Source of the DNA: Plasmodiophora brassicae
Taxonomy: Eukaryota
Length of the DNA stretch: 64,000 nt
Assembly: GCA_036867785.1 (NCBI GenBank)
Contig: CP145410.1
Coordinates: 1,488,001-1,552,000 of the forward strand
Reading direction: 5' to 3'
The notes under the pieces are model-generated. The model ran no database searches. It was not told the DNA's origin and saw only the letters and a program-made list of their open reading frames with translations. Every line of letters starts with the position of its first letter. The stretch's first letter is position 1. This document shows positions 4,409-57,045 of the stretch, one piece after another. Both the position numbers and the translations under genes were made by a program.

Positions 4409-4441
<33 letters not shown>

Positions 4442-5446: not shown

Positions 5447-5656
5447 GGTTCCCCGTTATATATGCATACGAACAATAGAGCTGGCATCGATGGCTCGCTC
5501 GACGGTACATTCCATGGTACTGTACTAGGCGCGACCTTTATGTACGCAGGCACAGCTGGTATCATTGTACGACGTCCACCCAGGTCCTAACGCACGTAGG
5601 TAGCAGTACTGTCACTAAATGCTGTAGACAGCTATGTTGTTCTGTTGCAATGAGTA

Positions 5657-13612: not shown

Positions 13613-14356
13613 CAGCAAATGCCCGTTAACGTCGTCGGGTTGTATCCCGCCGATCACGCTGGGGTGCTCGATGTACGGTTTCTCGGTCGTCTCTTTTCTA
13701 CGCGTGTTAGCGTCGCGGGCGCGGGACCGACGTTGACCGCGCGCGGGCGATGCAGGGCGCGCCGTGCTTCTCGGCTTTCGATCTGACGTCAGGCTGCTGG
13801 CAGGTCCCCGTGGCGGAGGCCGACCAGTACAAGTCGGCGTTCGTGACGCGCGACGGCCTCTTCGAGTGGAACCGAATGCCGTTTGGGTTGAAATGCGCCC
13901 CTGCGACGTTCTGCAGGCTTATGGGCAAGGTCATCGCCGGGATGTCGTTCGTGGACTGCCTCGTCTACATGGACGACGTTGTAGACCGGACCGCCCAACT
14001 AGGCCACGAGAGCAGCTGCTCCCCTTTCCTCAGGACAGCAGTGTTATGGCACGGCCGCGACGGGGGTCGCGCAGCCGCGCAGTTTGAATAAACGTCCACG
14101 GCAACCGACGGCTTCGGCAGTCGGTTAATTCCGTGTTGTGGAGACAATAGTCGTCCGTCGTGTCGTCTCCTGACATCTTAACCGACCTTAACCGTTCGTC
14201 ACCGTCTGTCGTCGCATCGTCTGTCGCTGTCTGTCGTCACCGTCTGTCGTCGCATCGTCTGTCGCCGTCTGTCGTCACCGTCTGTCGTCGCATCGTCTCT
14301 CGATCGTCTACCTTCGGCCTGTCCGCCCCCTTCGTTCTTCGCTCGTGTACGTCTCG

Positions 14357-15343
14357 ATGACGGTCACGCGCTCCGGCTCGACGGGCTCGACGGCTGACGA
14401 AGCCAAGTGCCCAACGACGCCTCCCTCTCCCATCGACCCAACGACCTTGGCCGATGTGGACGCCGCCGATCGCGCCCTCGCGGGTGCCTTACGGGCCTTC
14501 CAGATCCAACAGGATGCGTTCTTCACGGAAATGCGGGCTCGCGCTGAGGAGCAGCTGAAGATCTTTACCAACGCGCTTGCCAGTCCACACTCTACGCCGC
14601 CTACGCCCATGACCGATCCCTCGGCAACATCTGCTGAGCCGTCGTCACATGGCAACGATCCTGTTGTCACGACGACTAAGGTGTCGTTGAGCGAATTTTC
14701 CGGCAATTCCGACGACCTGCCGGCGAGCGAGTGGCTGGCGCTATTCGCTAGCATTGCCCGCGTCGATCTCTCGTCGACCCAGCCACTGTCAGCGGGCGCT
14801 CGTGCGCTCCTGGCTAGCTGCCTGAAGGGCGAAGCGCGTTTCGTTTTTCGTCAACTGGATGCGACCGCCTCCCCAGCCGCGTTCGCCGCGCTGCTCCGGT
14901 TTAATTTTCCAGAACCGGACGTCGAGACCCTCGAATCCCGGTTCGATGCCCTTCGTCAAACGGGACCGTTCGATGCTCATCTGCGTCGGTTCATGTACCT
15001 GTACAACGCCGTACAGTCGGCCTCGAAGGGCGAGTACAGTCTCCCGTCAAAGCGCCTGGCGACGAAGTTCCGCAAGTCGCTCGCCCCAGAGCTTTCGACC
15101 GAGCTCTTCAAGCTCAATCCGCCGACATTCGACGCCATGGTCAAAGAGGCAGCGCGCCTGGCCCCCCTCTATGCCCCGGCACACGCGCTCCTAGCTACGG
15201 ATGCCTCGCCGACCACTCGGACCAAGCTAACGCCGGAGGAGCGCGAGCGCTGCAAACGGCAAGGATTGTGCATGTATTGCCGGCAGCCCGGCCATATGGT
15301 CGCAACATGCCCACATCGTCCGCCGGGAAATGGTCAAGGGTGA
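14357..15343 (+). CDS. gag: Gag (family A)
   Basis: LRQTG motif and CCHC knuckle [14 protein letters not shown]. Confidence 0.9.
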
Positions 15344-18300
15344 CTGCTCCCGGGTTGGCAGCTCACCCTCTCTCGATACACGAATGTTCTTCGTCCTCGC
15401 AACCCGACACTGTCCTCGTCACTGCTCTTTGTTTCGCAACTGTTCATTCATCTCATCATTTATTCGTTCCGTTTCAATCCACGGGCGATCGCCCGTGGGC
15501 GACGACGGCCCTTTTGGACTGTGGAGCGACATCTTCCTTCGTCGACGCCGGTTTCGCCCGCCGCTATGGCCTGCCACTCCGCTCCAAAGCACAACCGATT
15601 CCAGTCAAGGTTGTTGACGGCCGTCACCTGCCACCGATCACATTGGAGACGGCGCCATTGCCGTGTTCCGTCAACGGGGCCTTCCACGACACAATTGTCC
15701 TCAACGTTATTGACGCTCCGAGTCACCGTATAATCCTGGGACTGCCCTGGCTCGAACAGCACAATCCGGATATCGACTGGCTTCGTCGCACCGTACGCGA
15801 ACGCATTACTCGGGGATCACCGCGTTTGTGGCTCGATGCTCGGGCCGGTGGGAACCCCACCGGCTCTGCCGACACGGTTGCCTGCTCTGCTGACACGGTC
15901 GCCCTTTCTGATGCCACAGTCGCCTGCTCTCCTGACACGGCCGTCTGCTCTCCTGACACGGCCGCGTTATTATGCTGCGCCGAGGGGTTGCCCGTCGAAC
16001 CCGGCCCGCTTCCGAGCGCACCGCCTTTGGACATTGATCACTTCGTCGCCTCGTCGTCTCCCGTTACTGCCCAGCCGTTACCACCGGTGGGTGCTTCTCT
16101 GGTCGCCGTCGACGTTCCGGAACTAGTGCAGCCTGCGCCTGCTACTGACCAGCCATTAGTGCCGGTGGCTGCTTCTCTGGTCGACGGTCCGGAACTCGTG
16201 CCGCCCGTGTCTGCCGCTGGTCGACCAGAGAATTCCGCCGCACCGCCTGAGTCGGCGACCGCAGCTGCCGCCACTGTTCCGCCACCGCTTCCGCCTCTTT
16301 CGTGCTTGGCACCGGCCCCCTCTTGTTCAGAACATCCCTCGGTTTCGCCGGCACGTCGCCGCGCGGGTCGACGCGCCCCTTTCGCCTGCTCAGGGCGCAG
16401 CAGTCCACACGGGTCACTCGCCTCCCAGCTGTGTGCGCTCGTGGGGCTGGTCGCCCTCCTGGTATTGATCGCCAACAGCTCCGCCCCGAGACGTGCGCCT
16501 TCCATGCTTCCGGATCCCTGCGTCATCGACAACGCCTTGCTGACTTCCGTGCCACAGGCCTCCACGTCGTCGTCGGTTGGAACGGATCCGTCGACTACGG
16601 AGCCGCCAGGCGAACCTGTGGAGCCGCTCTCCATCGCGTTTGTTTCCGCCGAACCGTTCTTAGACGACGTGCAAGACGGCGCAGACTGCTATGCCATCCA
16701 CTACACATGGTCACCGTCCGATTCCGCTGCCCACGCCGCGGAACTACCGCCGCAATATCAGGAGTTTACTGACGTGTTCGATAAGGCGAACTCAACGACT
16801 CTTCCTGATCACCGATCGTTCGACTGTCCGATTGACCTGAAACCTGGTGGCGACCCGCCGTATTGCCGTCTGTACGGGCTGTCACCCCGGGAACAAGAAG
16901 CCTTGAAGGAGTATCTCAGGATCAACCTGGAAGCTAATCTCATTCGTCCATCCCGTTCATCGGCGGGCGCCCCAATTCTGTTCGTCAAGAAGAAGGACGG
17001 TAGTCTTCGCCTGTGCGTAGATTACCGTGGTCTAAACTCTGTTACTATCAAGAACCGATATCCGGTTCCACTTATCGACCAGCTCTTGATCCAGCTCGGC
17101 TCCGGAACAATCTTCACGAAAATCGACCTCCGCAGCGCCTATAACCAAGTTCGGATCCGAGAAGGCGATGAGTGGAAGACGGCCTTCCGCACGCCGTACG
17201 GCTTGTTCGAGTACTTAGTCATGCCGTTTGGCTTAGCCAACGCGCCGGCCTCCTTCCAGTACTTCATGAACGAGACGTTCAAGGATTTCCTTGATGTATT
17301 TGTGGTAATCTACTTGGACGACATCCTGATCTACTCATCGACTCCCGAGGACCATGAACGCCATGTCCGTCTCGTCCTACACCGACTCCGCACTGCTCAA
17401 CTCCACGCTAAACTGGAGAAGTGCGTCTTCAATACGGACGAAGTGGAATTTTTAGGTTTCTTGGTGTCCTCCTCCGGGATACGGGTTGAACCCTCCAGGA
17501 TCGATTGCATTCTCTCGTGGCAACAGCCGACCGACGTCCACGGGGTGCAGGTGTTTCTCGGGTTCGCTAACTTCTATCGCAAGTTCGTTCCCCACTTCGC
17601 AGAGCTGGCCTTACCGCTGACAAATCTCACGCGTGATAACGTGCCGTTTCGTTGGGATCAATCGGCAGACGCCGCATTCACGGCGCTCAAGGTTGCTTTC
17701 ACGTCAGCCCCTGTCCTTGCTCATTTCGACCCAGATCGCCCGTGCGAAGTGGAAACGGATGCTTCCGATTTCGCGGTGGCAATGGTCTTGTCGCAGCGGG
17801 GCCCCGATGATGAACTTCACCCGTTGGCATTCTTCTCGCGCAAGCTCGCGCCTACTGAGATCAATTTTCCTATCTACGACAAGGAACTTCTCGCGGTCGT
17901 CCAGACCTTCGAAAAGTGGCGTCAGTTCCTGGACTCATCGCGACACCAGACCGTCATCCACAGCGATCATCGGAATCTGGAATACTTCACCAGCACTCAC
18001 AAACTGAATCGTCGTCAAGTCCGATGGTCCCAACTGCTTAACGAATTTGATTTCGTTATCCAACACCGACCAGGCCGTCTTCATGGCAAGGCGGACGCCC
18101 TGACTCGTCGCCCCGAATACGCGCCTTCTGATCAGGATGAGGTTGTGCTCCAGCAGTCACTCCTGCTCCTTCCAGCGTCGCGGCTCGGGCCAGGACCCCT
18201 ACAGGAGGTCCAGATCAACGTGGCCGATACTACAACCGACGCACTCCTCGATCGTATCCGCCGCAACCAAGCTTCCGACCCGTTTGTGTGCCGCACCCGT

Positions 18301-19728
18301 CAGCGACTTCATCGTCCGAGCGGCCGCCACTTTAGCGTCCGAGACGACGTTCTATACCGTGGACATTCTGTGGTCGTCTCTGGCGATGACTGCAAACTGG
18401 ACATTCTTCGCTCTTTCCACGATAATGTCACGGCGGGCCACCTCGGTATTCGGAAAACCGTGCAGTTAATTCGCCGCGAATTTTGGTGGCCGGGTTTGAC
18501 CCCTTTCGTAGCCCGTTACGTGCTCTCCTGCGATACGTGTCGTCGGACTAAGACGGCTCGGCACAAGCCCTTCGGATTACTCATGCCACTCCCTCTGCCG
18601 ACGACTCTTTGGCGGTCCATTTCCATGGACTTCGTGGTTAAGCTTCCCTGTTCGAACGGGTATGACTCCATCCTCGTCGTCGTTGACCGCCTCTCCAAGA
18701 TGGCGCATTTTATTCCTTGCAACGAAACAATATCATCTGTTGACCTTGCTGCCTTGTTTCTGGCAAATATCTTCCGCTTACATGGCCTCCCTGACGATAT
18801 CGTGTCGGACCGAGGGCCTCAGTTCATCGCTAAGTTCTGGAAGCAACTTCTCATACGTCTCGGCGTGCAACGCAACCTGTCTTCTTCGCGGCACCCAGAA
18901 TCCGATGGCCAAACCGAGCGGGTGAACCAAGTCATGGAACAGTATCTCCGTGCGTACGTCAACTACTTACAAGACGACTGGCAGCCGCTCCTTGCCGTAG
19001 CTGAATTTTCGTACAACAATGCAGACCATACCGCGACAGGTATGTCACCGTTTTTCGCGAACTATGGCTACCACCCACGTGTGATGGACGTGCAACCTCG
19101 ACCGTCTACCAGCGCCAATCCGACTGCCGACGAGCGCGCTGAGTCCTTGCAGAGGATTCGCAACTTCTTGACCCGTCAACTGACTCGAGCTTCTGCCGAT
19201 TCCAAACGATTCGCCGACGCGAAGCGGCAAACATCTCCGAAGTTTCAGGTGGGCGACTTAGTGATGCTACGTCGCGGCTCCCTGAAAACTCTGCGACCCT
19301 GCGCGAAGCTCGACTACCAATTTTTAGGGCCATTCCCTATCAGCCAACTCGTCAATCCGGTTGCTTTTCAACTCGACCTTCCTGCCGAGTTCCGTATCCA
19401 CAATGTATTTCATGTATCTCAACTCGAGCCTTACGTCGCCAACCTTATCCCTGGTCGCACTCAACCTCCTCCTCCACCGATTCTTCTCGCGGATGACGAT
19501 GCTCCCCTCTTCATCGTTCACGATGTCCTCGATTCTCGATATCGCCGTTCCCGATTGGAATATTTGATCGACTGGGAAGGGTACCCGCCTTCTGAACGCA
19601 CGTGGGAACCCGCAGGAGAACTACACGGTACAGGTGGGCTCAACGAATTGTTGGTTAACTTCCACGCTCGGTACCCAACCAAGCCGGGGCCGAAGTGGCG
19701 AAAGCCACCCCGCCGGCCGGCCCGATGA
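15325..19728 (+). CDS. pol: Pol PR-RT-RH-IN-chromodomain (family A), reached by -1 frameshift
   Basis: LLDCGAT, YLDD, TDASD, GHLG..CDTC, SMDF/VSDRG/GQTER, chromodomain [12 protein letters not shown]; slippery GGGAAAT at 15325-15331. Confidence 0.95.
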
Positions 19729-20264
19729 CAGGGGACTATACTGTTATGGCACGGCCGCGACGGGGGTCGCGCAGCCGCGCAGTTTGAATAAACGTCCACG
19801 GCAACCGACGGCTTCGGCAGTCGGTTAATTCCGTGTTGTGGAGACAATAGTCGTCCGTCGTGTCGTCTCCTGACAAGCAGGACCCCCTCCTCAGGACAGC
19901 AGCATCTTGAGGTCGGGCACGAGACGCTAAATATAGAGCCCCGCTCTACAACGTGCCCGTCTTCTCCCAGACGTTGGACCAGCACTTTAACCGGATCACC
20001 AGGGTGTTTGAGCGCCTACGCGAGCATGGACTGACCGTCAGCCCGAGGAAGACGTACCTTCTCCAGCGCGCGGTCACCTACCTGGGTCACCGCATAAGCG
20101 AAGAGGGGCTCGAGCCCGACGCGCGGCTCGTTAGAGCGGTGGTGGAGTTCCCGGAGTCGACGAACAAGGCGCAGACAAGTGCGTTCTTGGGGCTCGCGGG
20201 GTACTACTCCCATCTGATTCGCCGGTTCGCGGAGATCTCGGCTCCGCTCAGAGACCTCATCGTC

Positions 20265-21270
20265 CGACCGACTCCCATGCCGTATTTCTCTCCCAACACA
20301 AATATGTCGCTGACATACTCCACAAATATGGTATGGCACACTCGACCCCAGTCCCTACGCCAGCCAACCCGGACGTCAAGTTAACCAGCGACATCGCACC
20401 ACGCAGCGCACCAGACCAGCAACTGGCTACGCGGGAAAATCAACGCATCAACTACCGCGCTGCCGTTGGGCACGTCACATGGCTCACACACACACGCCCG
20501 GATATTGCGTATGCTGTCAGCGAAGTGTCCCGCTATGTCAGTAACCCCGGCCCCCAACACTTCGTTGCCCTCAAACGGATCCTGCGCTACCTCAACGGCA
20601 CTCGTGACTACGGCCTACTCTACCATCGTACACCAAATCAAACCGACCCTGTCCTCCAGGCGTACTCCGACTCTGACTGGGCTGGAGACCTTGACACTCG
20701 ACATTCCACCAGCGGCTACATTGTCTTCCTGAACGGCTGCCCCATCTCTTATAAGACACAAAAGCAACGTTCGACAGCCCTGTCGTCCTGTGAAGCGGAA
20801 ACGGTGGCATCCTCCCAAGCAGCGGCAGAGACAGTCTGGCTACGGTCTGTCCTCGGCGAAATTGGTTTTCCACAAACCCATCCGACGGACCTCTTCGTTG
20901 ACAACCAAGGTGCTATTGCCTTCGCCAACAACGCTGTGAACCACAGTAAGATGAAACACATCGACATCCGACACCGTTACGTCCGGGACCAAGTGGCTGA
21001 CGGCCAATTGCGAATCTCGTATGTGCGCTCCAGTGATAACCTCGCGGACATCTTCACCAAAGCCCTGGGAAAGATCAAGTTCGAGGAGCTCCGAGAGAGA
21101 ATCGGCTGCGTCAGACGACCATGTCCGGTCGAGGGGGGGAGTCAAGACACGCACCCTCAAGCCCTGGAACCTGGCAACACCCTCAAGTAGGATGCGGCCT
21201 CTGGTAACAGTCAGACACGTCCACTACCCCTCACGGGGAAATACACTTACTTAGTTATTATGTGCCTTCA
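20265..21270 (+). mobile_element. 5'-truncated Copia fragment (RT C-terminus, RNase H, PPT, probable 3' LTR ~21141-21270)
   Basis: TRPDIAYAV, YSDSDWAGD, SSCEAE, KHIDIR, ADIFTKAL; GAGGGGGGGA tract. Confidence 0.85.
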
Positions 21271-22000
21271 GACGCCCCGGGGCGGTGGGGGTCCGAGGCG
21301 TTCGTCCAGCTGAAGCAGCGTCGATCTGTCGGAAGGGCCATTCTGGCACATCCCGACTTCTCGTGTCCGTTCATCCTGCAGACGGATCGGAGCAAGTTGG
21401 CGTTCGGGGCCATTCTGTGTCAGCGCGATGATGAGGGTCACGAACGTCCGATCGGCGATCGCCTACATGTCCCGCAAGTGCCGGGGCGTAGAACGGCCTC
21501 TCGGCGAGGGGAAGCCATGTCGATCAAGCACGCGCTCCCACGTCGGAAGTGGCGATGCTTCGGAAGGAGATCACTTCGTGCTTGAGACCGACCACCGCCC
21601 ATTGGAATTCCTACGCAAGGAACAGGATGCCGCGCAGCTCTGAAGAGTTTGGGAGGCGCTGGAGCGTACGACTACACTCTGGGGTACAAGCCGGGAACTT
21701 CAATGACGAACGTGGACGCGTCGAGCCGCGTCGAGTATCGACACCACTCGGGCGAGGCCGTCGTCGATCCGGCACTCGTCGAGTCGGAGTCGGATGCGAG
21801 CGATATGGAGGCGGATCTGGACGACGATGATGACCTGGCGGACGTTGCGGAGGCGTTCGGTGTTCGAGCTGTCAACGTGACTGGCATCAGCGACTCTTGC
21901 GGGTGATGCCTCGTCCGATATGGTTGGTCTGAAAGACATGCACGACCTGGATGGCACCGACGAGAAGGATGAGGACGACCCGGTGGGCGGCCGGACGTCA

Positions 22001-22495
22001 GTTCAGTTCAGTTCAGTTCAGTTCAGTTCAGTTCAGTTCAGTTCAGTTTATGTGTGCTTCGCGCTTTTCACGCAGGCGCTTCGTTCTCGGGTCCGAGGAC
22101 CGAAGGGTCAACCAGCAGAACGCCAGCGTCACCCGGCCTGGCAGTGCCGGCCCATCACCTCTGTGCTAAGTTCATCGCGTCTGGACGATATCGGGACGGG
22201 ACTTGACTCGCTCGGAATTGCCGACTGCACTCTTTGCCGATCTACTTCGCCATACCGCCTATGTCGGGATGCTGACATACCCTTGTCTTGCGGGCCGTTC
22301 CTCTACCTCCCCAGTCGCTCAATCGAGACCCTTATTGCTCTGGCACTTTGGGCTGCCTGATCAGTAGATCACCCCTTCAACACTCGCAGCTGTTGGGTAC
22401 AGGACATTTTTTGGAGTTGTTCGTGCCTCGAACTGGGGACCTTGCGGTCCCACGACTGCTGCTGACCAACCAGGTCACTGGGGCAGCCCCCCTGC
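22001..22495 (-). mobile_element. SINE-like non-LTR insertion, copy 1
   Basis: 10-bp TSD CCGGACGTCA (21991-22000, 22496-22505); (AACTG)n tail; homologous to 46288-46768. Confidence 0.8.
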
Positions 22496-22789
22496 CCGGA
22501 CGTCATTGGCCTACGGGAACGGCAACGTGCGTATCCGATCTTGGGACGCTTGATCGAGGAGAAGGAGCGGAACGAACCACTGAAGAGTCGATTGGCTGCG
22601 ACGACGATCTTGAACGAGGAAGGCGTCCTGATGAAAGTGCGGTCACCTCGTCGAGCTGCGGATGGCGAACGGCAAGTTCTGTCTGTGCCAGAGAGTGACC
22701 GTGGCAAGCAGCTGAAGAGAGCGCCTGACGATCCAGTCGCGGGGCACTGCGGCAAGGCAAGAACGATCCAGAACCTGCAGCAGGCGGCG

Positions 22790-23115
22790 TGTAGACAGGA
22801 CCGCCCCAACTAGGCCACGGGAGCAGCTGCTCTCGTGGCCTAGTTGGGCGGTCCGGTCTACAAAACATCTCACCGGGGAAGCTCAAGCCCCCCGACGATC
22901 GAGCGATGTCCGCCGCCTACCTGTGTAGACGACTCGCAGACCTGCTCTCGTGCCTGGCGCGTCCGTACTATCTACACATCCTCCCCAAAACTCTTCGTCT
23001 CTGCGGACTGCGAGGAGGCTCGAACTCCCGTCGGTGAGATGTTTTGTAGACCGGACCGCCCAACTAGGCCCGAGAGCAGCTGCTCCCGTGGCCTAGTTGA
23101 GCGGTCCGGTCTACA
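22790..23115. mobile_element. Miniature element with palindromic terminal repeats (family E), monomer
   Basis: Near-perfect palindromes 22790-22862 and 23045-23115 around a 182-bp core; 4-bp TSD GGCG; interrupts the integrase of relic I. Confidence 0.9.
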
Positions 23116-23279
23116 GGCGTTCTGGCCGGGCATGATCCGGGACGCGCGTCGATGCGTCAAACGTTGCCGAACATGCCAGCAGGCCAAATCTCGGGTAGGT
23201 GGTACCGTCGGAGCAAGGGCTGCGACAGGAGTTCGCCGACGACAACGTCCAGTTCCTGCCCTGGCATTCAGAGCACGTT

Positions 23280-26200
23280 TGTCGAACAATGTATCCACTA
23301 CGACCAGCAGCACATGCCTGCAGCACGTGAACGCCGTCACGCACTCCGCGACTCCGTGCCCGCCGGCGTTGGCAACCGTTACACCGTCGGCGACTACGTC
23401 GCCACTGTAACGTCCGCCGCACACGCCGTACGTAATACATTCACTCCATTATTGCCTTTCTCAGATTAACAGTCGTATAGGCGCAGGCGCTGAGCCTCTA
23501 CTCGCCATGGCCGAGCGCCAGGCGACGCCTAACACGGATGACGACCCGCTGCGTCATCTGTCGCTCGAGGAGATCGACACCCGAATTGCCGAAGCGGAGG
23601 CAACGATCGCCAGGCAGGAGAAGATCGACCGTCTCCGTGTCCTGCAGCAGCAGCTGGCGCGTCCGACCAGCTGTCCATCGACCCCGGCCATGCCGATCAT
23701 CGCCGAGGCGCACAGCCGAAGCGACGCAGGCCGACTGCCCATGCCCAGTTCGACGGTACTCCCGACTCGTTCACGTCCTGGGTTCAGACAGCTGCACTCT
23801 GGTTTCGCAATCGTGGGTACGCGGACGTCATCGGGATCAACGAAGATGGCTCGCCGACTGCGACAACCGGTACGGCACACGACCCAGCTCTCGAGGCAGC
23901 CGCGCGCGAGATTCTACTCGTCCACATGCTGGACCACAAGATCGCGTCCGCGTTGTCTTTGTTTCAGGCAGGCTCGGCTGCCAAGTGCTGGCGCGTGCTG
24001 TTCCAGGCGTACAGCCCATCGTCGCTGGCATCGGTCGTGCGCGCCGTCCGCGACCTCGTCACGGTCCAGCACATGCCCGGCGAGTCGGTCGCCACGTACG
24101 CCGCCCGAGTTCAAGCAGCGGCTCATCGCGTCCGGTCGACGGTACCGACCGAGATGCTGTCCCTCACCGACGCATTGGTCGCCGTCCTCATCTTGGCCAA
24201 CGCATCATCCGATCTCGACGCCGTCGTCGCTGGCCTGCACAATCGTGCTCTGGACACGCTGCCCAGTGTCTCCGAGGTCGTCGGGTCGTTGACAAGCGAG
24301 GAGATCAGGGTCCAAGACGTGCGGGACCGACACGACGCGTTCCAAACGGCCAACCGCTCCAGTTGCGCCACATCGACGCGTCCCCGTGGACCACGACGCA
24401 ACGAGTCCTGCGTCTTCCATCCCGGATCCAAGCACACTAACGGCGAATGCACGCTGCAACGACACATCTGGTACCGCGACAGCAACGCGAAAACCAATAC
24501 ATCCTCACCAACGTCCAACGAGTATCCAACGTCTGGCGCTCATCCGGTCGATCCGGCGCCCGAACCGATGCGTGCTTTGTCGGCACGCCACGCCATCGAC
24601 GTGTACGCGAACTCAGTAGGCCTACTGGACTCAGCGTGTTCCACGACGATGACGCCCCTGCGCCGACATCTCAGCTGCTATCGCCAAGGCACCGGACCGG
24701 AAGTTGAGCTAGCCGATCTGTCGCGTACGACCACTTCCGGTCGAGGCGTGACGTCATTCGGCATGGATGTCCAGGCGACGAGTATCGATTCGCTGCACGT
24801 TCCCCGACTTGGCCAAGCGCTAGTATCAGTTGGCCAGCTCACCAGATCAGGTCACAAGATCGTGTTCGACGGCGATACCGCGAAGATCTACTCGGGGGCC
24901 AACTGGACGGCGCCCGTCGGTCAGCCAGTGGTCGTCAGTCAACGAGGACACGATAACCTGTACCGGATTCCATTATCCGCTCCAACCTCCGCGCCCGGCA
25001 CACTTCATTCCGCCCGAGTCTGCTCCTTGATCGCATTCAGCGTCTCATGCCGCGTCGCTAAGGTCACCGCCGCAGCTCCAGCTGTCTGGCACGCTCGAAC
25101 CGGCCACCTGGGTTACGGCAACCTGCGCATCCTGCACAAACGTTGTCGTGGCATGAAGTTCGACGGGCCAATCCCGAGGCCGCAAGATCGATGTCCATGC
25201 GCTGCATGTTTACTCGCCAAGGGCAAACGGTCATCATTCCCTCCCAGTACGTCGCGCGCGCGTCGTGTTGGCGATCTCGTCCATAGCGATCTGTCCGGAC
25301 GGTGGCCTGTCGTCGGTGTCGGCGGCTTTGAGTACTACCAGACCATGCTGGACGATTCCTCTCGGTACCTGTCCGTCTATCTGCTACGTCGCAAATCGGA
25401 GGCGCTCGACGTCATCAAGCACTATGACGCGCGTCTTCGCAACCAGGAAGGACGTGGTATCCGGACGTTCCAGACTGACGGTGGCGGCGAGTACAACTCC
25501 AAGGCGTGCGTCCTGTTCTACAACGAGTCCGGCATCCTGCACCGCAAATCTGTCCCGTACACGCCCGAGCAGAACGGCCGCGCTGAAAGCGTCAACTACA
25601 CGCTCTGCGGTATCGAAAGCTCAATCCGGTGCCACTCTCGCATGCCTGACTCCACGTGGCCCTGGTCGCTGTCCTACTCTGCGATACTGTACAACATCCA
25701 CCCGAGGTCAGTCCTTCCCGGGCGTCGCACATCGTTCGAGGCTGCTCGTCGCGCCCTACCTAACATCTCGGCCCTTCGTGTCTACGGTTGCGATGCCTAT
25801 GCCATGCGACCGCATCCAGCCACGAAGAAGCCGAGCAAGTTGGAGCCTCGTCGTGTTCGCGCTGTGTTTATCGGTTTCACGCCCGGCATGAAGGCTTGGC
25901 GGTTCTACGACGTGGACCGGGAAGACACGTTCGAGAGCACGACTGCCGAGTTCCTGGAGACCTCGTTCACATTTGGATTTGGAAGATCCAGCCCTGCTAG
26001 TTCATCATCAGCGCCACCGTCCAGTCCTGAGCCGAGCTCTACGCCGAACGTTGAGACGATCGTCCCGACGCCCGTCTCTTCCGACGCCGTCATGGCACCT
26101 CTACCATCGACGTCAGCATCCTCTCTCGCAGCATCCCCTCCCGAGCCTCCGTCACCTGCCGCTGCGTCATCGCCTTCCGAGATCGTCCGACCGTCGCGCT

Positions 26201-28159
26201 CACCGTCTTCTGATGACGTATCCACCGACGAAGATGATGATGACGCTGAAGGTGATCCCGACTACGAAGGTTCGGCGTCCAGCAACGACTCTCCCAACGA
26301 AGCTGCCGATCCCGACGTCCACGACAATTCCGATGCTGCTGATATCGTTGACCACAATGTCATCGATGTGCCACGCCCTCGCCGATCGAATCGTCGTCGT
26401 CAACCGCCTGGTGAATGGTGGAAGGCGCCGGAGGCGGCCAATCGTTCGTCGACACGGTGGTCCTCGACGGTCGACGCCTGGTTCCAGAATCCGACCCTAA
26501 CGTCCCCGACACAGCGCCCTCCTCGTCGCTCCCGCCGACTGATCCGGCATTGGCAGCAGGTTGAGGAGCGCCGTCTGATCGATCAGGCCATCAGGTCCAA
26601 CCGTCCGACATCTCGCGGCGCCGCTGCCAAGGCATGTCGAGCCAAGGTATCCGCCCCGATCGACCCAGCCCGACTACCACGACCCGACCTGTCGAAGCTG
26701 AACGCAACCGACATTCCCGTACCCAACTCAATGGCCGATGCCCTCTCATCACCTTTCGCTGGCCACTGGTGGGACGCCGCCGTCACCCAGATGGCAACAC
26801 TGGACGCCAAGGACACGTTCGGCCCGCTAATCGACCTGCCGAAAAGTAAGATCGCTGTTGGCGCCAAGTGGGGGTTCCGAGTGAAGTCCTCGCTCAGTGG
26901 CAACGGTGGCATCCGCAAGTTCACCGCCCGACTCTGTCCTCAGGGCTTCCGACAACGCCCCGGCATCGACTTCGACGATACGTTCGCGCCGACCGCCCGT
27001 GCCACCGCGTTCCTCGTTACGAGAAGCTCTCCACGATGGCCGAGATCACGGATCAAGGTGAACCGTCGACCCTGCTTGGCATGCGCATCCGACGCGAACC
27101 TGGCACCGGCGCCATCACCCTTGACCAAGCCGAGTACATCGAGAAGGTGTTGAGCGACTTCAACATGTCGCATTGTCATCCGGTCGACACGCCGCACCAG
27201 CCTGGCGTTCACCTATCAACGACAATGAGTCCACAAAGCGACCTCGACCGCGACGAAATGGCGACCAAGCCGTACCTCAAACTTATTGGCTGCCTGACAT
27301 GGCTCGCCCATCAATGCCGTCCCGACATCGCGTACATAACGAATGTACTGGCCCAATTCTCCTCGAATCCCGGCATCCAGCATTGGCGTGCGGGGCAACG
27401 CGTTCTTAAGTACCTCGCCGGCACCATGACGCACGGCATCCGATACGAACGCCAGCCCGAAGATCGTCTGATCGCATACGCCGACGCTGATTGGGCATCC
27501 GACCCTGACACGCGACGGTCGCGCTCCGGCCACATCATCCTGCTGGCTGGCGGCCCCGTGCACTGGCAGTCACGTCGCCAAGACCTGGGCGCAGTCAAAG
27601 TTAGCTTATCGTCCACACATGCAGAGATCAAGTCGCTGTGTGCTGTTACCCGCCGGCTGGCCTGGATCCGGTCATTCCTGACCGAAATCGGCTTCGCACG
27701 CTCCAGTCCGACGATCGTATACGAGGACAATCAAGGCGCGAAGGCCTGGTCAGGCTATCGTCGGATGGATGATCGCACGAAGGACATCGAGGTGCAGTTT
27801 CACTACACCCGGGAGGCCGTCGAGGCCAGTTTGATTGTCGTCCACAAGTGCCCGTCCGCCGAGATGGCTACAGACTACCTGACGAAGCCCGCTCTCAGCA
27901 CCTCATATCATGCGAACCTGCTCCTGGCCGTCATCATCGACACAAGTCCCAGGCCGTGTGCTGCTGGAGGGGGCGTGTCGAACAACGTATCCACTACGAC
28001 CAGCAGCACATGCCTGCAGCACGTGAACGCCGTCACGCACTCCGCGACTCCGTGCCCGCCGGCGTTGGCAACCGTTACACCGTCGGCGACTACGTCGCCA
28101 CTGTAACGTCCGCCGCACACGCCGTACGTAATACATCCACTTCATTATTGTCCTTCTCA
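23280..28159 (+). mobile_element. Ty1/Copia retrotransposon (family C, copy 1), defective
   Basis: 184-bp LTRs 23280-23463 and 27976-28159; PBS GATTAACAGTCG; PPT GGAGGGGGCG; flanks do not match each other (ACGTT vs TTCGA). Confidence 0.95.
23507..28106 (+). pseudogene. Copia Gag-Pol with a 1-bp frameshift near 23747 and a 355-bp RT deletion at 27019/27020
   Basis: LLDSAC, WHARTGH, VHSDL, TDGGGEY, EQNGRAE, YADADWA; lesions defined by comparison with copy 2. Confidence 0.9.
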
Positions 28160-30637
28160 TTCGAGACATACGCGTATGAAAGCAGGGTTGCCGACGCGTG
28201 ATAACGCAACGTAAAGCATCCCGTGTCCGAATACTGGCATTGGCAGGTATACACCAACGCGCCCTGTTATTGTCTGTCCCTGCGCCTTCGATATGGTTAC
28301 TGCGAAGCCGAGTCGGATTGGAAACTGCAGCCTCGTGAACTTGATTGCCAGTCGAGATTCGTCGTTGGGTGCGAACGTGATCCGAGGTAGGAATGCAGTG
28401 TTACCCGTATAGGGACCTGTGACGATGCGAACGTGGAGTAGGTGCCGTTGTTGCCCCAGTAGGATGACGCGTATGCCGTTCTGCAGTCCTGGCGTCCCAA
28501 GCATATTACGAAGGAGAATGTAGATGCATCCCACTTTCAGGGGGATCCGATACGGAGGCATTTCAGGGTTGGGAGTCTGGATACATGGGTACAGGTACTC
28601 CGAAAGTCTTGTGTGTCGTTTTCCCCCCGGTAGAAGGTTCGCAGCCATTCCGGAAGTGGCGCAGACGATCGACTTTTGGTGTTGCAGTGCTTGCCGGAGG
28701 ATGAGCGTGCGAATGGGGAACGTCTTGCCGCAGCCTCCGCCAGCCTGCAAGTAATAGATGTGCCCAGAGCGGGTATCAATCGACTCGCTGATCTCGTCAT
28801 AGAGGATGCGCTGGTCACGGTTGAGCGTGGAAACATCGGCTTCAAGCTGGTGCCGCAGCTGTTCCATAGTGGTATTGGGGTAAGTCGTCAACAGGTATTG
28901 CGTAAACAGCCGGTCAACGTTGTCATTGTCATCGTCCGCAATGGAAGGCAGTCCATATTGGCGAAGGTCACCGCTTCGTCCTGCAGACTGAAGCATGGAT
29001 TTGACGTAACAGTCATTGTCAGTGCATGGAACAACACGTTGCGGAGGGTTGCGTCCAGACCGTTGGTTTCTGGAGAAGGCGAAATCGGCGGACAGAGCAT
29101 CTCGAAATGTTTGCCAGAACAGCGTCGCGTTGGTCAAGCGACGACTGAGCAGGATGGTGACAAACAGGTTGCGTAGGGCTGTTGGAGTAGCGTATGTGGA
29201 TGCCTCTGCCATGCACTCGATCCAGTCAGTATCATTGCGGCATAAATTACGCGCGATGGCTGCGTCCTGGAACGTGTCATATCGGTGGCCGTTGAAATGC
29301 AGGAGAAATTCGAATGATGGTACACGCGGAACACGATGCAGTAGAAGTCTAAGGTAGTACAATTCACCTTGGGCAGGTAAAATATTGTACAGTCGGGATA
29401 CGACGGTAGCGTTGCGACGGGACCGTCGGGTCCACGTTCTCGTCGATGTGTTCCACCTGTACCATAGAGGCATCTGGGCATACGTCAAGTCAGTTGCAGG
29501 GGGCCCGCCGTTGAGCATTTCATGTGGCAAGGGATTCCCTGTTTCGTGCTGGACGGTATCAAAAGACGATGTCAGCTTGCGGTCGTTGACATATTGCTCG
29601 CGTCCCAGCAGGTGTACGGGAAGGATCTCACAACTGTGCGAGCTGTCATGCATAGGGATGCCGAACAGGCGCCAAGCGGCTTCGCTGGAACTGAGGTAGC
29701 GCGCGTCCTGAAACAGGTCGATCTCATTTTGATGATCAGGATTGTCGGGATCCCCCATAATGCTGCGAAAAGATGTCCGATCAGTGCCCTTGTGCATATA
29801 CATGAAAAGGTATTTGATCGCCGAATGCGTAGTGATGATTTCGACGTTAATATGGCAGTTCAGCCTGAGCAGGAGATAGGGATTGTAAGGTACGACCTGC
29901 GAGTTGTTGTAGGTCGTGCCGGTTGCCGACGTAAACGTTTCGCCACCGTGCGAGGGATGGCGTCGTCGATATTGGTCTCCTATTTCGTTCAGATCCAGCG
30001 TCGTCATGGGGGAGAACTGTTTGGGGAACCCCCGCCGACATTTGCCAGCGGCGTCCAAACATCGGTCGGCTCTGCACGTGTGCAGCATGTGTCTGGTGAC
30101 GAGGTCGCGCAACCGAGCATTGGAAGGGGGTGGAATTTCTGCACTCACGTATCTGTCATAGTCGTGAATATTAAGTCGTTGTGATAGCCAGAGCAGCATG
30201 TGGATGTGTGGCAATCCGCGCTTTTGGAATTCCACGACGTATACATACCCAAGGTATGTGCCGAATTGCCCCTTGACGATTGCAATTAGGCGCCGGACCT
30301 TCATCCTGAACACGCGAGCGACGATATCCGGGCGATCGTAATGCCGCTGCCCGGGTCGCAGAGACGACCGAACCTCCTTCCAATCAGGGTTTGCCGTCAT
30401 CGTTATGAGGAATGCAGGAGGGCCCAATTGCTCTTTCATAGCGCAGGTGTTGAGGTAGCGCTGGAACATGTTCCTCGGGCCACCGATGAAGCTAGGCGGT
30501 AGACGAACGAAGCGATCTCGATTGGCATTCATGTCGAGGTTGTGTGGCTCGTCATTCCGCAGTGACCCGTTGGGAACATGCTGATGACGCTCAATGTATC
30601 GGAGTCGTTCGGTCTCCACCTTGTAATACATGTCGCA
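28160..30637 (-). mobile_element. Helitron RepHel fragment, truncated on both sides and internally shortened
   Basis: Rep motifs FLITMTANPDW and VVEFQKRGLPHIH; Pif1-type helicase motifs GGGCGKT, QFPIRLGFAVTISKAQGQT, GMLYVALSRV. Confidence 0.92.
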
Positions 30638-32430
30638 TGTGACGACCGAACACGATGAGTCAACCACACGGATTGACCGACTGAGGTCGGTCCGCGCCGT
30701 GGACGTTTATTGTACCTAGTGCGCTACGAAGGAGCCCAATTTGGTGCCGGCTGAGTCGCCAACACGACTCAGTCGTGACATAATAGTCCCCTTTTAGCCG
30801 CACCGGGAACGGGCTGCGGGCTTGTCTGGGTGGAAGCATTTGGTGAGGCCTAGCAAGAACTGCTTCATCATTAGGCGACAGTCTGTACTCCAGTCGACGA
30901 GTCAGGGCGTCAGGTGTCCAATGAACGAAATCAACTTCGCTAAGGAATTGGAGTGAACGAATCTGTCGTCGATGTAGCTTGTGGGCAAACGCACGTGTGG
31001 CGGCGTCCAGGAACATGAGATCGAGGTTGAGAAACGCGATCGAGGTTGATGAGGCCTGGTCATCCTCTAGCGTAGCAAAAGGTGCAAAGAAGGACTCGGC
31101 GGGCGCATTCAAGGGCGGGAGCTCCGCAGAGGCGCTCGTACACAGCTGTGCTATTGGAAAATACGGCCACCCAACTAGGATCCAGGTCAGGGCGACAAAG
31201 GTTGCGAACATCAGAAGATTGAGGCTGTGGCCGTCTCGGAAGCCATCATTGGAGGAGGCGGCGGGGGCGGCGGGAGAGGCCGTCTGGCCCCTCGTCGCAC
31301 GGGGCCCCAGTTCCGGAAGGAGGACATAAGGGGCGTGGACTCGGAGCCTGAACGGGGCAATGATAAGAGATCGGCGCGGCTGGGGGCAGCAGTATCATTG
31401 AAGGCGGCGACCCCCGGGATGCTACCATAATCGAATGCGGAAGGGCGCGGCAACGTTTCAAGTGATTCAGCTGAAGGGATGGCACACGCAGGCGCAGGAA
31501 CGCTTCGTGCAGGAGGTGAGACCCCAGCTGAGAGACTATCCCCGCGCTTAACTGTTGCAAATGGTCCCGCCGAAGAGACGAAGGACCCAGACTCATGGAC
31601 GTCTCCTGTACGGCGTGACATCCCCACGAGGGTATCTCCGCGGCGCTGTAGGCGGCGCTGACGCCAATCGATATCTGGGTTTGTATCCGCCAACCAAGGC
31701 AGCCCAAGAATGACAGGGTGTTGAGGCGAGTGGATCATGTTCAGGACGACGTCGCTGTCGAAACATCCGTCGACGGTAGCACGTAACGGGACGGTTTCCT
31801 GAGTTACTGGAGACAGGTGTCGCCCGTCGATGACGCGAACAGGAATGGCACGCGATTTAGAGCGAACCGGTATTTCGTGGTGACGACAGAACGACCAGTC
31901 GATGAAGTTGGAAGTCGCACCACAGTCTAACAGGGCGAATGTGTTGACACGGCGTGAGCCGATAACGAGGCATACCGATACCAACAGATGCGGTATTGAG
32001 GGAGACGTCATAAGGAACAGATCAGTGACGTGGAGAGGGTTGCCGAACCGCTCGGGACACAGCGATGAGCGGTGGCCAACCTTACGACAGTGCGGGCACG
32101 GTGGCCTCTTCGGGCAGGACGCAATAAAATGCCCAACTTCGCGACAATAGTGGCAAGCCAGGGGTTGTGTCCTTGCATCACCGCCAGCGTTGATGGCGGC
32201 GATTGGGTATTTCGACTCAAGATGAGCCGCCATCTCGAGAATTTTGTCGTAGTCTCTGAAGTTGTACAAGAACAGCGCTTCGGAGAGCGCAGGGTTCAGC
32301 GAGAGGCGGAACTTTTCCGCCAAGCGGGCCGGATTGAGTCTGTACAATGGGTCAAGTCGTTGAAGGTCCTTGTACAAGCGTTGGAATGCCAGTGCGTGGT
32401 GAGCGACACCTGCAGTCTGCTTCAGGTCAA
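30638..32430 (-). mobile_element. Internally deleted, 5'-truncated relative of Gypsy family B (gag C-terminus, protease, spacer, 3' LTR 30638-30780)
   Basis: Two CCHC knuckles and LLDCGAT very similar to B; RT/RH/IN essentially absent; PPT AAAAGGGGACTATTA and B-like LTR. Confidence 0.88.
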
Positions 32431-33347: not shown

Positions 33348-36300
33348 GTTCCCTCGCGACGTTTTGGGGAGGTACACAACGTGGTCAACGTTGAGAAAGA
33401 CAATAATGGAGTGGATGTATTACGTACGGCGTGTGCGGCGGACGTTACAGTGGCGACGTAGTCGCCGACGGTGTAACGGTTGCCAACGCCGGCGGGCACG
33501 GAGTCGCGGAGTGCGTGACGGCGTTCACGTGCTGCAGGCATGTGCTGCTGGTCGTAGTGGATACATTGTTCGACACGCCCCCTCCAGCAGCACACGGCCT
33601 GGGACTTGTGTCGATGATGCCGGCCAGGAGCAGGTTCGCATGATACGAGGTGCTGAGAGCGGGCTTCGTGAGGTAGTCTGCAGCCATCTCGGCGGACGGG
33701 CACTTGTGGACCACGATCAAACTGGCCTCGACGGCCTCCCGGGTGTAGTGAAACTGCACCTCGATGTCCTTCGTGCGATCATCCATCCGACGATAGCCAG
33801 ACCAGGCCTTCGCGCCTTGATTGTCCTCGTATACGATCGTCGGACTGGAGCGTGCGAAGCCGATTTCGGTCAGGAATGACCGGATCCAGGCCAGCTGGCG
33901 GGTAACAGCACACAGCGACTTGATCTCTGCATGTGTGGACGATAAGCTAACTTTGACTGCGCCCAGGTCTTGGCGACGTGAATGCCAGTGCATGGGGCCG
34001 CCAGCCAGCAGGATGATGTGGCCGGAGCGCGACCGTCGCGTGTCAGGGTCGGATGCCCAATCAGCGTCGGCGTATGCGATCAGACGATCTTCGGGCTGGC
34101 GTTCGTATCGGATGCCGTGCGTCATGGTGCCGGCGAGGTACTTAAGAACGCGTTGCCCCGCACGCCAATGCTGGATGCCGGGATTCGAGGAGAATTGGGC
34201 CAGTACATTCGTTATGTACGCGATGTCGGGACGGCATCGATGGGCGAGCCATGTCAGGCAGCCAATAAGTTTGAGGTACGGCTTGGTCGCCATTTCGTCG
34301 CGGTCGAGGTCGCTTTGTGGACTCATTGTCGTTGATAGGTGAACGCCAGGCTGATGCGGCGTGTCGACCGGATGACAATGCGACATGTTGAAGTCGCTCA
34401 ACACCTTCTCGATGTACTCGGCTTGGTCAAGGGTGATGGCGCCGGTGCCAGGTTCGCGTCGGATGCGCATGCCAAGCAGGGTCGACGGTTCACCTTGATC
34501 CGTGATCTCGGCCATCGTGGAGAGCTTCTCGAGAACGGATTCCGCGAACGGGACGTCATTGTACGCCAGCAGACCGTCGTCGGTGTGCACCGACATGATC
34601 ATGAACTTTCCATCGCGATCGTACCGGAAGACGCAGGGGTCCGCGATGATCGATTCGAATCCGAGTGATAACAGCATCTCCCGAAGCGTCTTGTACCAAC
34701 GTTCGGCGCCTTGTTTCGTTCCATAAAGGGCCTTTTGCAGTTGACGAACTCGGTACGGGACGTGATGATCGGTGAAGCCATCCGGCTGACGAATGTAAAC
34801 ATCATGGAGCATGTCGGCGTTCAGGTATGCGGCCACCCAGTCGACCTGGCGAAGATGCAGGCCGTGCTGCGCCGCGAGCGCTAGGATAACGAGGAACGCA
34901 GTGGCACGGGCGGTCGGCGCGAACGTATCGTCGAAGTCGATGCCGGGGCGTTGTCGGAAGCCCTGAGGACAGAGTCGGGCGGTGAACTTGCGGATGCCAC
35001 CGTTGCCACTGAGCGAGGACTTCACTCGGAACCCCCACTTGGCGCCAACAGCGATCTTACTTTTCGGCAGGTCGATTAGCGGGCCGAACGTGTCCTTGGC
35101 GTCCAGTGTTGCCATCTGGGTGACGGCGGCGTCCCACCAGTGGCCAGCGAAAGGTGATGAGAGGGCATCGGCCATTGAGTTGGGTACGGGAATGTCGGTT
35201 GCGTTCAGCTTCGACAGGTCGGGTCGTGGTAGTCGGGCTGGGTCGATCGGGGCGGATACCTTGGCTCGACATGCCTTGGCAGCGGCGCCGCGAGATGTCG
35301 GACGGTTGGACCTGATGGCCTGATCGATCAGACGGCGCTCCTCAACCTGCTGCCAATGCCGGATCAGTCGGCGGGAGCGACGAGGAGGGCGCTGTGTCGG
35401 GGACGTTAGGGTCGGATTCTGGAACCAGGCGTCGACCGTCGAGGACCACCGTGTCGACGAACGATTGGCCGCCTCCGGCGCCTTCCACCATTCACCAGGC
35501 GGTTGACGACGACGATTCGATCGGCGAGGGCGTGGCACATCGATGACATTGTGGTCAACGATATCAGCAGCATCGGAATTGTCGTGGACGTCGGGATCGG
35601 CAGCTTCGTTGGGAGAGTCGTTGCTGGACGCCGAACCTTCGTAGTCGGGATCACCTTCAGCGTCATCATCATCTTCGTCGGTGGATACGTCATCAGAAGA
35701 CGGTGAGCGCGACGGTCGGACGATCTCGGAAGGCGATGACGCAGCGGCAGGTGACGGAGGCTCGGGAGGGGATGCTGCGAGAGAGGATGCTGACGTCGAT
35801 GGTAGAGGTGCCATGACGGCGTCGGAAGAGACGGGCGTCGGGACGATCGTCTCAACGTTCGGCGTAGAGCTCGGCTCAGGACTGGACGGTGGCGCTGATG
35901 ATGAACTAGCAGGGCTGGATCTTCCAAATCCAAATGTGAACGAGGTCTCCAGGAACTCGGCAGTCGTGCTCTCGAACGTGTCTTCCCGGTCCACGTCGTA
36001 GAACCGCCAAGCCTTCATGCCGGGCGTGAAACCGATAAACACAGCGCGAACACGACGAGGCTCCAACTTGCTCGGCTTCTTCGTGGCTGGATGCGGTCGC
36101 ATGGCATAGGCATCGCAACCGTAGACACGAAGGGCCGAGATGTTAGGTAGGGCGCGACGAGCAGCCTCGAACGATGTGCGACGCCCGGGAAGGACTGACC
36201 TCGGGTGGATGTTGTACAGTATCGCAGAGTAGGACAGCGACCAGGGCCACGTGGAGTCAGGCATGCGAGAGTGGCACCGGATTGAGCTTTCGATACCGCA

Positions 36301-38030: not shown

Positions 38031-38226
38031 TGATGAAGACGATAACGAAGTGATTTATTCCGACCGACATCGGCGCGAGACGGTGGCGATGTAACGCTGT
38101 GTAACAGGGGCTTGCCAAGCCGTTACCGACAACGGCGTCAGTGGCGGAGCTTCTGCCGTGGACGTTACGCAGTCGCGCGCAGTCACGGCGTCACCGTGTG
38201 CCGGTGGTACGACATGGTCCTTGACA
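38031..38226 (-). repeat. Solo LTR of family D
   Basis: 196 bp, TSD GTGTG, homologous to the LTRs of 45171-46119. Confidence 0.92.
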
Positions 38227-38546
38227 GTGTGCCGTACCGGTTGTCGCATTCGGGGAGCCATCTTCGTTGATCCCGATGACGTCCGCGTACCCACGATTGC
38301 GAAACCAGAGTGCAGCTGTCTGAACCCAGGACGTGAACGAGTCGGGAGTACCGTCGAACTTGGGCATGGGCAGTCGGCCTGCGTCGCTTCGGCTGTGCGC
38401 CTCGGCGGTGATCGGCATGGCCGGCGTCGATGGACAGCTGGTCGGACGCGCCAGCTGCTGCTGCAGGACGCGGAGGCGGTCGATCTTCTCCTGCCTGGCG
38501 ATCGTTGCCTCCGCTTCGGCAATTCGGGTGTCGATCTCCTCGAGCG

Positions 38547-38741
38547 TAAGGAAGACAATAGCGAAGTGATTTATTCCACCGACATCGGAGCGCGACGATG
38601 GCGACGTAACGCAGTGTAACAGGGCTTGCCAAAGCCGTTACCGGCAACGGCGACGGTGGCGGAGCCTCTGTTGTGGACGTGACACAGTCGCGCACCCACA
38701 CAATGTCATCGTGTGCCGGTGGTAGGACATGGTCCTCGACA
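38547..38741 (-). repeat. Solo LTR of family D (TG..TA ends)
   Basis: 195 bp, TSD GAGCG. Confidence 0.92.
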
Positions 38742-39028
38742 GAGCGACAGCTGACGCAGCGGGTCGTCATCCGTGTTAGGCGTCGCCTGGCGCTCGGCCA
38801 TGGCGAGTAGAGGCTCAGCGCCTGCGCCTATACGACTGTTAATCTGAGAAAGACAATAATGGAGTGGATATATTACGTACGGCGTGTGCGGCGGACGTTA
38901 CAGTGGCGACGTAGTCGCCGACGGTGTAACGGTTGCCAACGCCGGCGGGCACGGAGTCGCGGAGTGCGTGACGGCGTTCACGTGCTTCAGGCATGTGCTG
39001 CTGGTCGTAGTGGATACGTTGTTCGACA

Positions 39029-57030: not shown

Positions 57031-57045
57031 TGTATCATCGCAGCT

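Follow-up and report, generated by a model that had tools for sequence, protein, structure and literature searches.

A dispersed miniature element with palindromic terminal repeats matching the tip of a putative solo long terminal repeat in Plasmodiophora brassicae

Several described systems share features with a small repeat, here called E, whose copy E1 occupies positions 22790-23115 of a 64-kb stretch of Plasmodiophora brassicae contig CP145410.1 (the window, meaning the whole 64,000 nucleotides analysed). Terminal-repeat retrotransposons in miniature (TRIM) and small long terminal repeat retrotransposons (SMART) are tiny non-autonomous long terminal repeat (LTR) retrotransposons. Foldback (FB)/Galileo elements have 7-9-bp target site duplications and termini different from those described below, and inverted dimers as well as homogenised long inverted repeats are known in DNA transposons (double Ds, Foldback/Galileo). 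Helitrons, which end in 5' TC and 3' CTRR, are not known to form a target duplication, and neither are DIRS elements, which use a tyrosine recombinase. Inverted LTRs and a single-stranded linear complementary DNA (cDNA) intermediate are described for DIRS elements (PMC7192593). Ginger transposons are described with TGTNR termini, 4-bp duplications for Ginger1 and Ginger2, and target preferences for CCGG/CCGT (Ginger1) and RTATAY (Ginger2), and the conversion of an LTR end into a terminal inverted repeat is proposed as a step in the origin of Ginger from Gypsy (PMC2836005). All results given here are based on the window and on public contigs aligned onto 22400-23500, which derive from three DNA runs of different studies (X1, X2 and X4) and from one run guessed to be RNA (X15).

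E1 is a 326-bp insert with the ends TGTAGAC..GTCTACA, in which a 73-bp palindrome (P1), a 182-bp core and a 71-bp palindrome (P2) follow one another between two copies of GGCG. Stop codons interrupt all six reading frames (two to five in each), and the insert is therefore taken as non-coding. The outermost 13 nt of the core are inverted relative to each other and contiguous with the palindromes, resulting in 86-bp terminal inverted repeats that are 100% complementary over 39 nt and 29 nt; the left 91 nt agree with the reverse complement of the right 91 nt at 86/93 positions. Approximately 20 nt beside the 13-nt core repeat resemble a decayed extension of the inverted repeat, and the self-complementarity of the inner 156 nt of the core was not significant (0.54 versus 0.50 ± 0.03 for shuffles). 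A single DNA strand of E1 folds into a rod with a calculated energy of -131.2 kcal/mol, compared with -55.3 kcal/mol (standard deviation 4.2) for shuffled sequences, corresponding to z = -17.9 with 0/100 shuffles as stable. When as many as 3 mismatches were allowed, a 26-nt pattern from the arm gave four matches in the window versus 0.00 expected. In all these points, from the order of the modules to the inverted core ends, the missing coding capacity and the rod-like fold, the first-pass annotation of the window was correct. A search of Rfam yielded ten matches, all of them below threshold and mostly generic microRNA hairpins (34 bits for the top match versus a gathering threshold of 83).

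In silico excision of E1 together with one GGCG restored an open Gypsy integrase frame across the H2C2 zinc finger; the peptide NLQQAAFWPGM, previously quoted for the repaired host, is present in it. A reading of E1 as an introner was rejected, as splicing at the terminal-most GT/AG would leave four extra nt and shift the frame (judged by eye). Within the E1 core, the 53 bp at 22924-22976 start and end with the element's own terminal 6-7 nt and also repeat an 11-mer from the right arm of a palindrome; no duplication surrounds this segment, which looks like a degenerate third terminus-like module.

The second copy in the window, E2 (54208-54831), is a 624-bp inverted dimer with GAAT on both sides. 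Its 286-nt arms are 100% complementary, and its core is identical to the E1 core at 175/183 positions. Beside the central palindrome an exact 50-bp tandem duplication was found (54444-54493 = 54494-54543); after removal of one of its copies, E2 is palindromic throughout its 574 bp (0 mismatches), and a palindrome unit lies at its centre. The fold energy of E2 was -430.9 kcal/mol (z = -63). The intact Gypsy element at 56735-62535 is a paralogue of the E2 host and contains the corresponding empty site with a single GAAT: the left flank of E2 (53953-54207) matches 61458-61708, the right flank (54832-55110) matches 61705-61984, and the two matches overlap by exactly 4 bp. The 4-bp duplication of E2 is thus demonstrated and not merely deduced from the flanks. 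The target duplication measures 4 bp in both window copies (GGCG and GAAT), one of them verified by the empty site. Together with the TG..CA ends, these duplications argue for insertion by an integrase-type enzyme.

The same observations bear on several of the described systems. In its rod-forming strand, its concerted inverted repeats and its inverted multimers E resembles FB/Galileo elements, but it differs from them in the 4-bp duplication, in its termini and in having a single LTR-derived unit in place of a subrepeat array. A rolling-circle origin of the Helitron/HUH type fails because E has TG..CA ends and a target duplication. With DIRS elements E has inverted terminal repeats, a retroelement context and a proposed single-stranded DNA stage in common (PMC7192593); a DIRS-like reading was rejected in view of the 4-bp duplication proven at the empty site and the TG..CA ends. 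Terminal palindromes, ends in a flip/flop-like relation and a head-to-head dimer with a palindrome at its centre recall parvovirus-type rolling-hairpin replicons, and an open reading frame for a Helitron-like Rep/helicase lies nearby (28157-30706, minus strand). E might accordingly be pictured as replicating by a rolling hairpin with the help of an HUH nickase, for example this Rep, and with no dependence on an integrase. We consider this very improbable: the 4-bp duplication with its empty site and the TG..CA ends are signatures of staggered DDE strand transfer, and E differs from the replicons named in being integrated with a target duplication, in encoding no nickase and in its size of 326 bp. 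The E2 dimer itself fits a hairpin-primed copy-back of a single strand, although template switching in situ at a replication fork could give rise to it too.

The termini of E recur in a 132-bp element of the window that has TGTAGAC..TCTACA ends and an ACGT duplication, interrupts a reverse transcriptase directly after its YMDD motif, and is itself split by the chromovirus Gypsy X (14042-19875). Removal of the 132-bp element with one ACGT restored the host reverse transcriptase frame. Its first 44 nt are the reverse complement of 22819-22862 without exception (44/44), and 23045-23087 is 97.7% identical to its positions 1-44. When the 132-bp element was aligned in the same orientation with the 183-bp LTR of chromovirus F, a score of 23 was obtained, versus -25.8 ± 8.8 for shuffles (maximum 0), with the match concentrated in the 3' 45 nt. 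On these alignments we take the 132-bp element to be a solo LTR from a family related to F. From the 44-nt matches it follows that the LTR-like half of each palindrome is the inner arm, with its tip beside the core and reading outward, and that the outer arm is an inverted copy of it. The connection of the termini with a Gypsy lineage, postulated in the first-pass annotation, is thereby borne out by the 44/44 match to a solo LTR that in turn aligns with the F LTR.

Chromovirus F encodes a 1623-aa polyprotein with reverse transcriptase, RNase H, integrase and chromodomain and is the closest autonomous relative in the window. Among the three intact Gypsy families that could be delimited, F has a 4-bp duplication, whereas X and G have duplications of 5 bp. 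The earlier statement that F and G share 4-bp duplications and TGTAGA..TCTACA ends with E therefore holds for F (4 bp, TGTAGA..TCTACA) and, with respect to the duplication, fails for G (5 bp). Gypsy X encodes a 1607-aa polyprotein and is flanked by an AGCAG duplication; its 134-bp LTRs are 100% identical, and it is therefore probably a recent insertion. A 9-nt stretch of its LTR is complementary to the sequence immediately downstream of the 5' LTR, a hint of Tf1-like self-priming without a tRNA.

P1 and P2 match at 67/73 positions in direct orientation and at 69/73 positions when P1 is compared with the reverse complement of P2, so that the terminal repeats are direct and inverted at once, as had been stated; compared with their own reverse complements, the palindromes score 68/74 and 66/72. 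Arm position 31 is G in both outer arms (22820 and 23086) and A in both inner arms. It is the sole systematic difference between the arms of an E1 palindrome, and the solo LTR shares this asymmetry. Contigs with zero differences cover 22820 (X1 record 1, X2 record 17) and 23086 (X1 record 6), in agreement with the mirrored substitution previously noticed at about these positions. It is this mirrored position that makes the inverted comparison (69/73) superior to the direct one (67/73). On this one informative character, the ends of E1 would thus be inverted copies and not products of the U3-R-U5 scheme of LTR synthesis, and the first-pass annotation had rightly preferred inversion over LTR strand transfer.

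The solo LTR also offers a trace of how the palindromes may have been formed. At approximately 30-41 nt from the tip it contains a natural 6+6 palindrome, to which one mismatched step is added. The homology between the solo LTR and E extends through the right side of this small hairpin, which comprises 8 nt, and no further; position 31 lies within these 8 nt. Since the homology ends exactly where the hairpin ends and the mismatch is retained at position 31, the palindromes probably arose by fold-back synthesis on an LTR tip, as judged from one site and one breakpoint. In E2, all seven arms (half arm included) carry a G to A exchange at position 9 and one C fewer; both features are absent from the four E1 arms and from the solo LTR. 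E1 has four private arm changes, each in a single arm and unmirrored. Because the E2 changes occur in every arm and the private E1 changes are unmirrored, the arms appear to drift apart after insertion and to be renewed jointly during propagation; if the pattern is read in this way, some propagation step must renew all arms from one template.

Palindromic repeats that are also direct repeats (67/73), the TG..CA ends with a short duplication and the short LTRs of this genome (134, 147 and 183 bp) would be compatible with a TRIM/SMART-like tiny LTR retrotransposon that has palindromic 72-bp LTRs, undergoes normal strong-stop transfer and is self-primed in the manner of the local chromoviruses. 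With TRIM and SMART, E has in common a size of a few hundred bp, the lack of coding capacity, repeats that match an LTR, TG..CA ends, a short duplication and a presumed helper integrase; it differs from them in its palindromic repeats, its inverted ends and the absence of a primer binding site and a polypurine tract as distinct sequences, the 13 nt on the inner side of the two repeats being one sequence in inverted orientation. The absence of a TGG site is not decisive in this context, given the 9-nt complementarity in Gypsy X that hints at self-priming. What renders normal LTR replication improbable for E is that position 31 is mirrored and not repeated, that the complementarity of the ends (69/73) exceeds their direct identity (67/73), that the 13 nt beside each palindrome are mutually inverted, leaving no distinct primer site or polypurine tract, and that no palindrome segment is complementary to the adjoining 13 nt (read directly).

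E is present in many copies outside the window. At the E1 locus the flank depth was 212.5 in X1, 85.8 in X2 and 70.3 in X4; core bins reached 2494-5718, 1181-2900 and 547-1732, and palindrome bins 20961-22513, 9288-10017 and 13898-19669, respectively. The depth of the core is thus about 8-34 times that of the flank, where summed contig depth gives an approximate indication and does not count copies. Contigs that resemble E but carry private variants lie close to the flank value in depth, which is why the E1 flank is probably single-copy; from contig depth and the differing flanks, the E core is probably present in about 8-34 copies, and the family as a whole is put at about 10-30 copies. At 22862, 10 (X1), 10 (X2) and 9 (X4) contigs continue into dissimilar sequence, and further contigs do so at 22863 (nine in X1, seven in X4). 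Agreement with the consensus amounts at 22862 to only 0.41-0.44, from which many different flanks at the palindrome end are deduced. The family is therefore dispersed, with at least 9-10 unrelated flanks per DNA run; the alternative that only the copies in the window exist, named beforehand as a ground for abandoning the proposal, does not apply, as many different flanks are found in X1, X2 and X4.

The contigs also bear on whether E1 might be an assembly artefact or a local rearrangement. Palindromes assemble poorly, none of the contig pieces listed spans the whole of E1, and the E2 dimer is known from the assembly sequence alone. The left junction of E1 is nonetheless covered by X1 and X2 with 0 differences and by X4 with 5 differences, and the right junction by X1 and X4, so that contigs of three studies run from unique flank to the palindrome centre (left X1, X2 and X4; right X1 and X4). 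As E1 and E2 moreover differ in their flanks and duplications, an empty paralogous site exists for one copy, and the terminus adjoins unrelated sequence in many contigs, an artefact is scarcely credible. Among the joints listed for the four runs, none connects 22789 with 23120 as expected for an empty E1 site. Insertion polymorphism of E1 was not seen, the insert being present in all three DNA runs, which does not imply fixation. Depth in X2 is 0 at 23140-23250 in the right flank; this is a coverage gap only and carries no evidence. A 24-nt arm pattern, which also occurs in the solo LTR, gave 0 matches in metagenome contigs. Palindrome copies from elsewhere in the genome contain small insertions (1-8 nt) at a single arm position near CTAG (contigs at 22811/23057-23066); each of these variants has approximately single-copy depth, and they recur in several runs.

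By its structure E is a miniature inverted-repeat transposable element (MITE) whose 86-bp terminal inverted repeats each contain a palindrome. The statement in the first-pass annotation that it fits no standard MITE was overstated, since small size, lack of coding capacity, terminal inverted repeats, a target duplication and multiple copies are all features of MITEs. A conventional origin would make E a deletion derivative of a Ginger-like or other DDE transposon, moved by cut-and-paste or by copy-out/paste-in; the 132-bp element would then be a non-autonomous relative, or its likeness to an LTR would reflect a common origin of Ginger and Gypsy ends. The 86-bp inverted repeats, the 4-bp duplication and the small non-coding body accord with such an origin, as do ends related by inversion and the lack of both a primer binding site and a polypurine tract. 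The inverted dimers and homogenised inverted repeats known from DNA transposons are also counted in its favour. TGTAG fits the TGTNR terminus, and 4 bp is the duplication length given for Ginger1 and Ginger2 (PMC2836005). With regard to the target preferences given there, however, GGCG, GAAT and ACGT fit Ginger1 or Ginger2 in 0/3 cases, a very small sample (PMC2836005). In the window, no open reading frame for an integrase lacking a reverse transcriptase was found among 15 long open reading frames scanned, all five rve (integrase-core) matches (six long open reading frames scanned) lie within polyproteins that bear a reverse transcriptase, and no autonomous DNA transposon with the inverted repeats of E was seen. 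The 44 nt in common come from an element that can be aligned with a genuine chromovirus LTR, and E differs from MITEs and Ginger elements in that each inverted repeat is palindromic and identical to an LTR tip. Insertion of E1, E2 and the 132-bp element within Gypsy elements (3/3) fits chromodomain targeting, a weak point as the window is all transposon-derived. We regard a conventional MITE origin as the main alternative, possible but doubtful.

Our preferred explanation, to which we assign a probability of about 0.5, is that a DDE integrase of retroviral type, belonging to the chromovirus lineage, inserts E as a non-autonomous element and recognises the same U3-type site at both ends, and that the DNA of E passes through a hairpin-forming single-stranded stage. 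Both termini would present the same integrase site, equivalent to the outermost 36 nt of U3 in an F-like LTR; chromovirus F shares the signature of E in its TGTAGA..TCTACA ends and 4-bp duplication. In the origin of the element, a strand ending approximately 44 nt into the LTR would have folded back on the small natural hairpin and would have been extended along itself to the LTR tip, giving an inverted repeat in which the primer mismatch was preserved. The LTR-like half would thus face outward from the core, and the fold-back copy would form the actual terminus. Propagation would proceed via single-stranded or hairpin-ended DNA, most likely cDNA made in helper particles, and not by the classical U3-R-U5 scheme. 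Such a stage would explain the inverted ends, the lineage changes found in every arm and the perfect inverted dimer. The hairpin-based parasite of an F/G-type Gypsy envisaged in the first-pass annotation is upheld insofar as E is symmetric, non-coding, mobile and tied to Gypsy by its ends; propagation via hairpins is read from the anatomy only.

Several findings weigh against this explanation. E1 has neither a TGG primer binding site after the left palindrome nor a polypurine tract before the right one. The missing TGG site is weak evidence, since the local chromoviruses also lack TGG primer sites and Gypsy X appears to prime itself; no tRNA genes are present in the window, and thus no local tRNA was available for comparison with primer sites. 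When both strands of the E core were compared with the 200 nt inside each LTR of F, X and G, no similarity was seen (12 comparisons, z values of -0.85 to 2.8), and a full-length parent with the 132-bp LTR was not seen within the window. The ends are related by inversion, unlike the products of standard LTR copying, and both the inversion argument and the fold-back trace hang on one variable position. X15 contains E-like contigs, with a depth of 0-3 for the E1 flanks and of 30-1544 for E, but these ratios do not demonstrate transcription of E, as carry-over of DNA could give them. Finally, integrases of LTR retrotransposons are not known to excise chromosomal DNA and act only on free linear ends, so that a source of linear E DNA has to be postulated. 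A more far-reaching version, in which E represents a new type of retroelement whose palindromes prime themselves, so that a transcript or single strand is copied in a rolling-hairpin-like manner, replace the primer site and polypurine tract and regenerate the U3 site for a chromoviral integrase, is in our view rather unlikely; if it applied, E would be an extant case of the conversion of an LTR end to a terminal inverted repeat.

The window has a G+C content of 58% and consists almost entirely of nested transposons, comprising three chromodomain Gypsy polyproteins, two Copia copies, the Helitron-like Rep/helicase frame and a hAT-like open reading frame (for coordinates of E, the solo LTR and chromovirus F, see the table). 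The two Copia copies (23280-28159, plus strand, and 33392-39029, minus strand) are in opposite orientation, with LTRs of 184 bp and internal regions 99.97% identical across 3144 bp; the first starts 165 bp downstream of E1, inside the same host integrase. Gypsy X has a partial second copy at 39028-41781 (97% identical), and its leader contains a tandem repeat of approximately 28-30 nt just after the 5' LTR (14180-14300). In chromovirus F, a 12-nt perfect palindrome (53283-53294) lies at the boundary between the 5' LTR and the presumed primer site, with no TGG after it. The Helitron-type Rep/helicase frame comprises 849 aa with the domains Helitron_like_N and PIF1 helicase. A 770-aa open reading frame at 9466-11778 (minus strand) may encode a hAT-like transposase, its match to DUF659 being weak (27.5 bits, below the cut-off of 34.7), and the long open reading frame at 2657-5455 (minus strand) is 100% identical to a Plasmodiophora brassicae protein. 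A repeat of approximately 195 bp occurs in five copies that are 85-99% identical (38031-38226, 38551-38742, 44097-44288, 45171-45365 and 45925-46121) and may represent the LTRs of another family or a short array. A (GT)n run is located at about 13600.

Table. Coordinates in the window of the two E copies, the empty site, the putative solo LTR and chromovirus F
Feature	Position	Strand	Remarks
Left GGCG, 4-bp target site duplication of E1	22786-22789		read directly
E1 palindrome P1, 73 bp	22790-22862	+	outer arm 22790-22826, inner arm 22827-22862
E1 core, 182 bp	22863-23044	+	outermost 13 nt inverted; inner 156 nt asymmetric
E1 palindrome P2, 71 bp	23045-23115	+	inner arm 23045-23079, outer arm 23080-23115
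Right GGCG, target site duplication of E1	23116-23119		read directly
E2 palindrome	54208-54277		
E2 core(+)	54278-54459		
E2 half palindrome	54460-54493		
E2 core tail, 16 nt	54494-54509		
E2 central palindrome	54510-54579		
E2 core(-)	54580-54761		
E2 palindrome	54762-54831		
Empty paralogous site for E2, single GAAT	61705-61708		in intact Gypsy 56735-62535
Putative solo LTR, 5' part, 62 bp	13980-14041	+	TGTAGAC start; first 44 nt = E arm + 8 nt past palindrome centre
Putative solo LTR, 3' part, 70 bp	19881-19950	+	same 132-bp element, TCTACA end
Chromovirus F	47277-53476	-	183-bp LTRs 98.9% identical, TGTAGAC..ATCTACA ends, 4-bp duplication GCGA (element orientation)

A literature search conducted mostly on abstracts yielded no description of an element with palindromic, LTR-derived termini and no MITEs or TRIMs described for Plasmodiophora. 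Judged from its sequence features, we rate E as a foldback MITE-like element with repeats derived from an LTR tip, an unusual but not unprecedented class of small parasitic DNA. As a plain MITE of a Ginger-like transposon, it would be of modest interest. If the preferred explanation is true, one fold-back event would be enough to make a symmetric element with inverted repeats out of a retrotransposon terminus, a single type of attachment site could allow this element to exploit an integrase, and a hairpin-dependent route would be added to the known copying modes of non-autonomous elements. Such a case would be relevant to the transition that has been proposed between LTR retrotransposons and DNA transposons of the integrase type. 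In Plasmodiophora brassicae, structural variation is concentrated in transposon-rich regions, according to a recent pangenome preprint with assemblies of 55 isolates (bioRxiv 10.64898/2026.10.14.759018), and the dispersed E family could serve as a marker of insertion polymorphism in this clubroot pathogen of crops.

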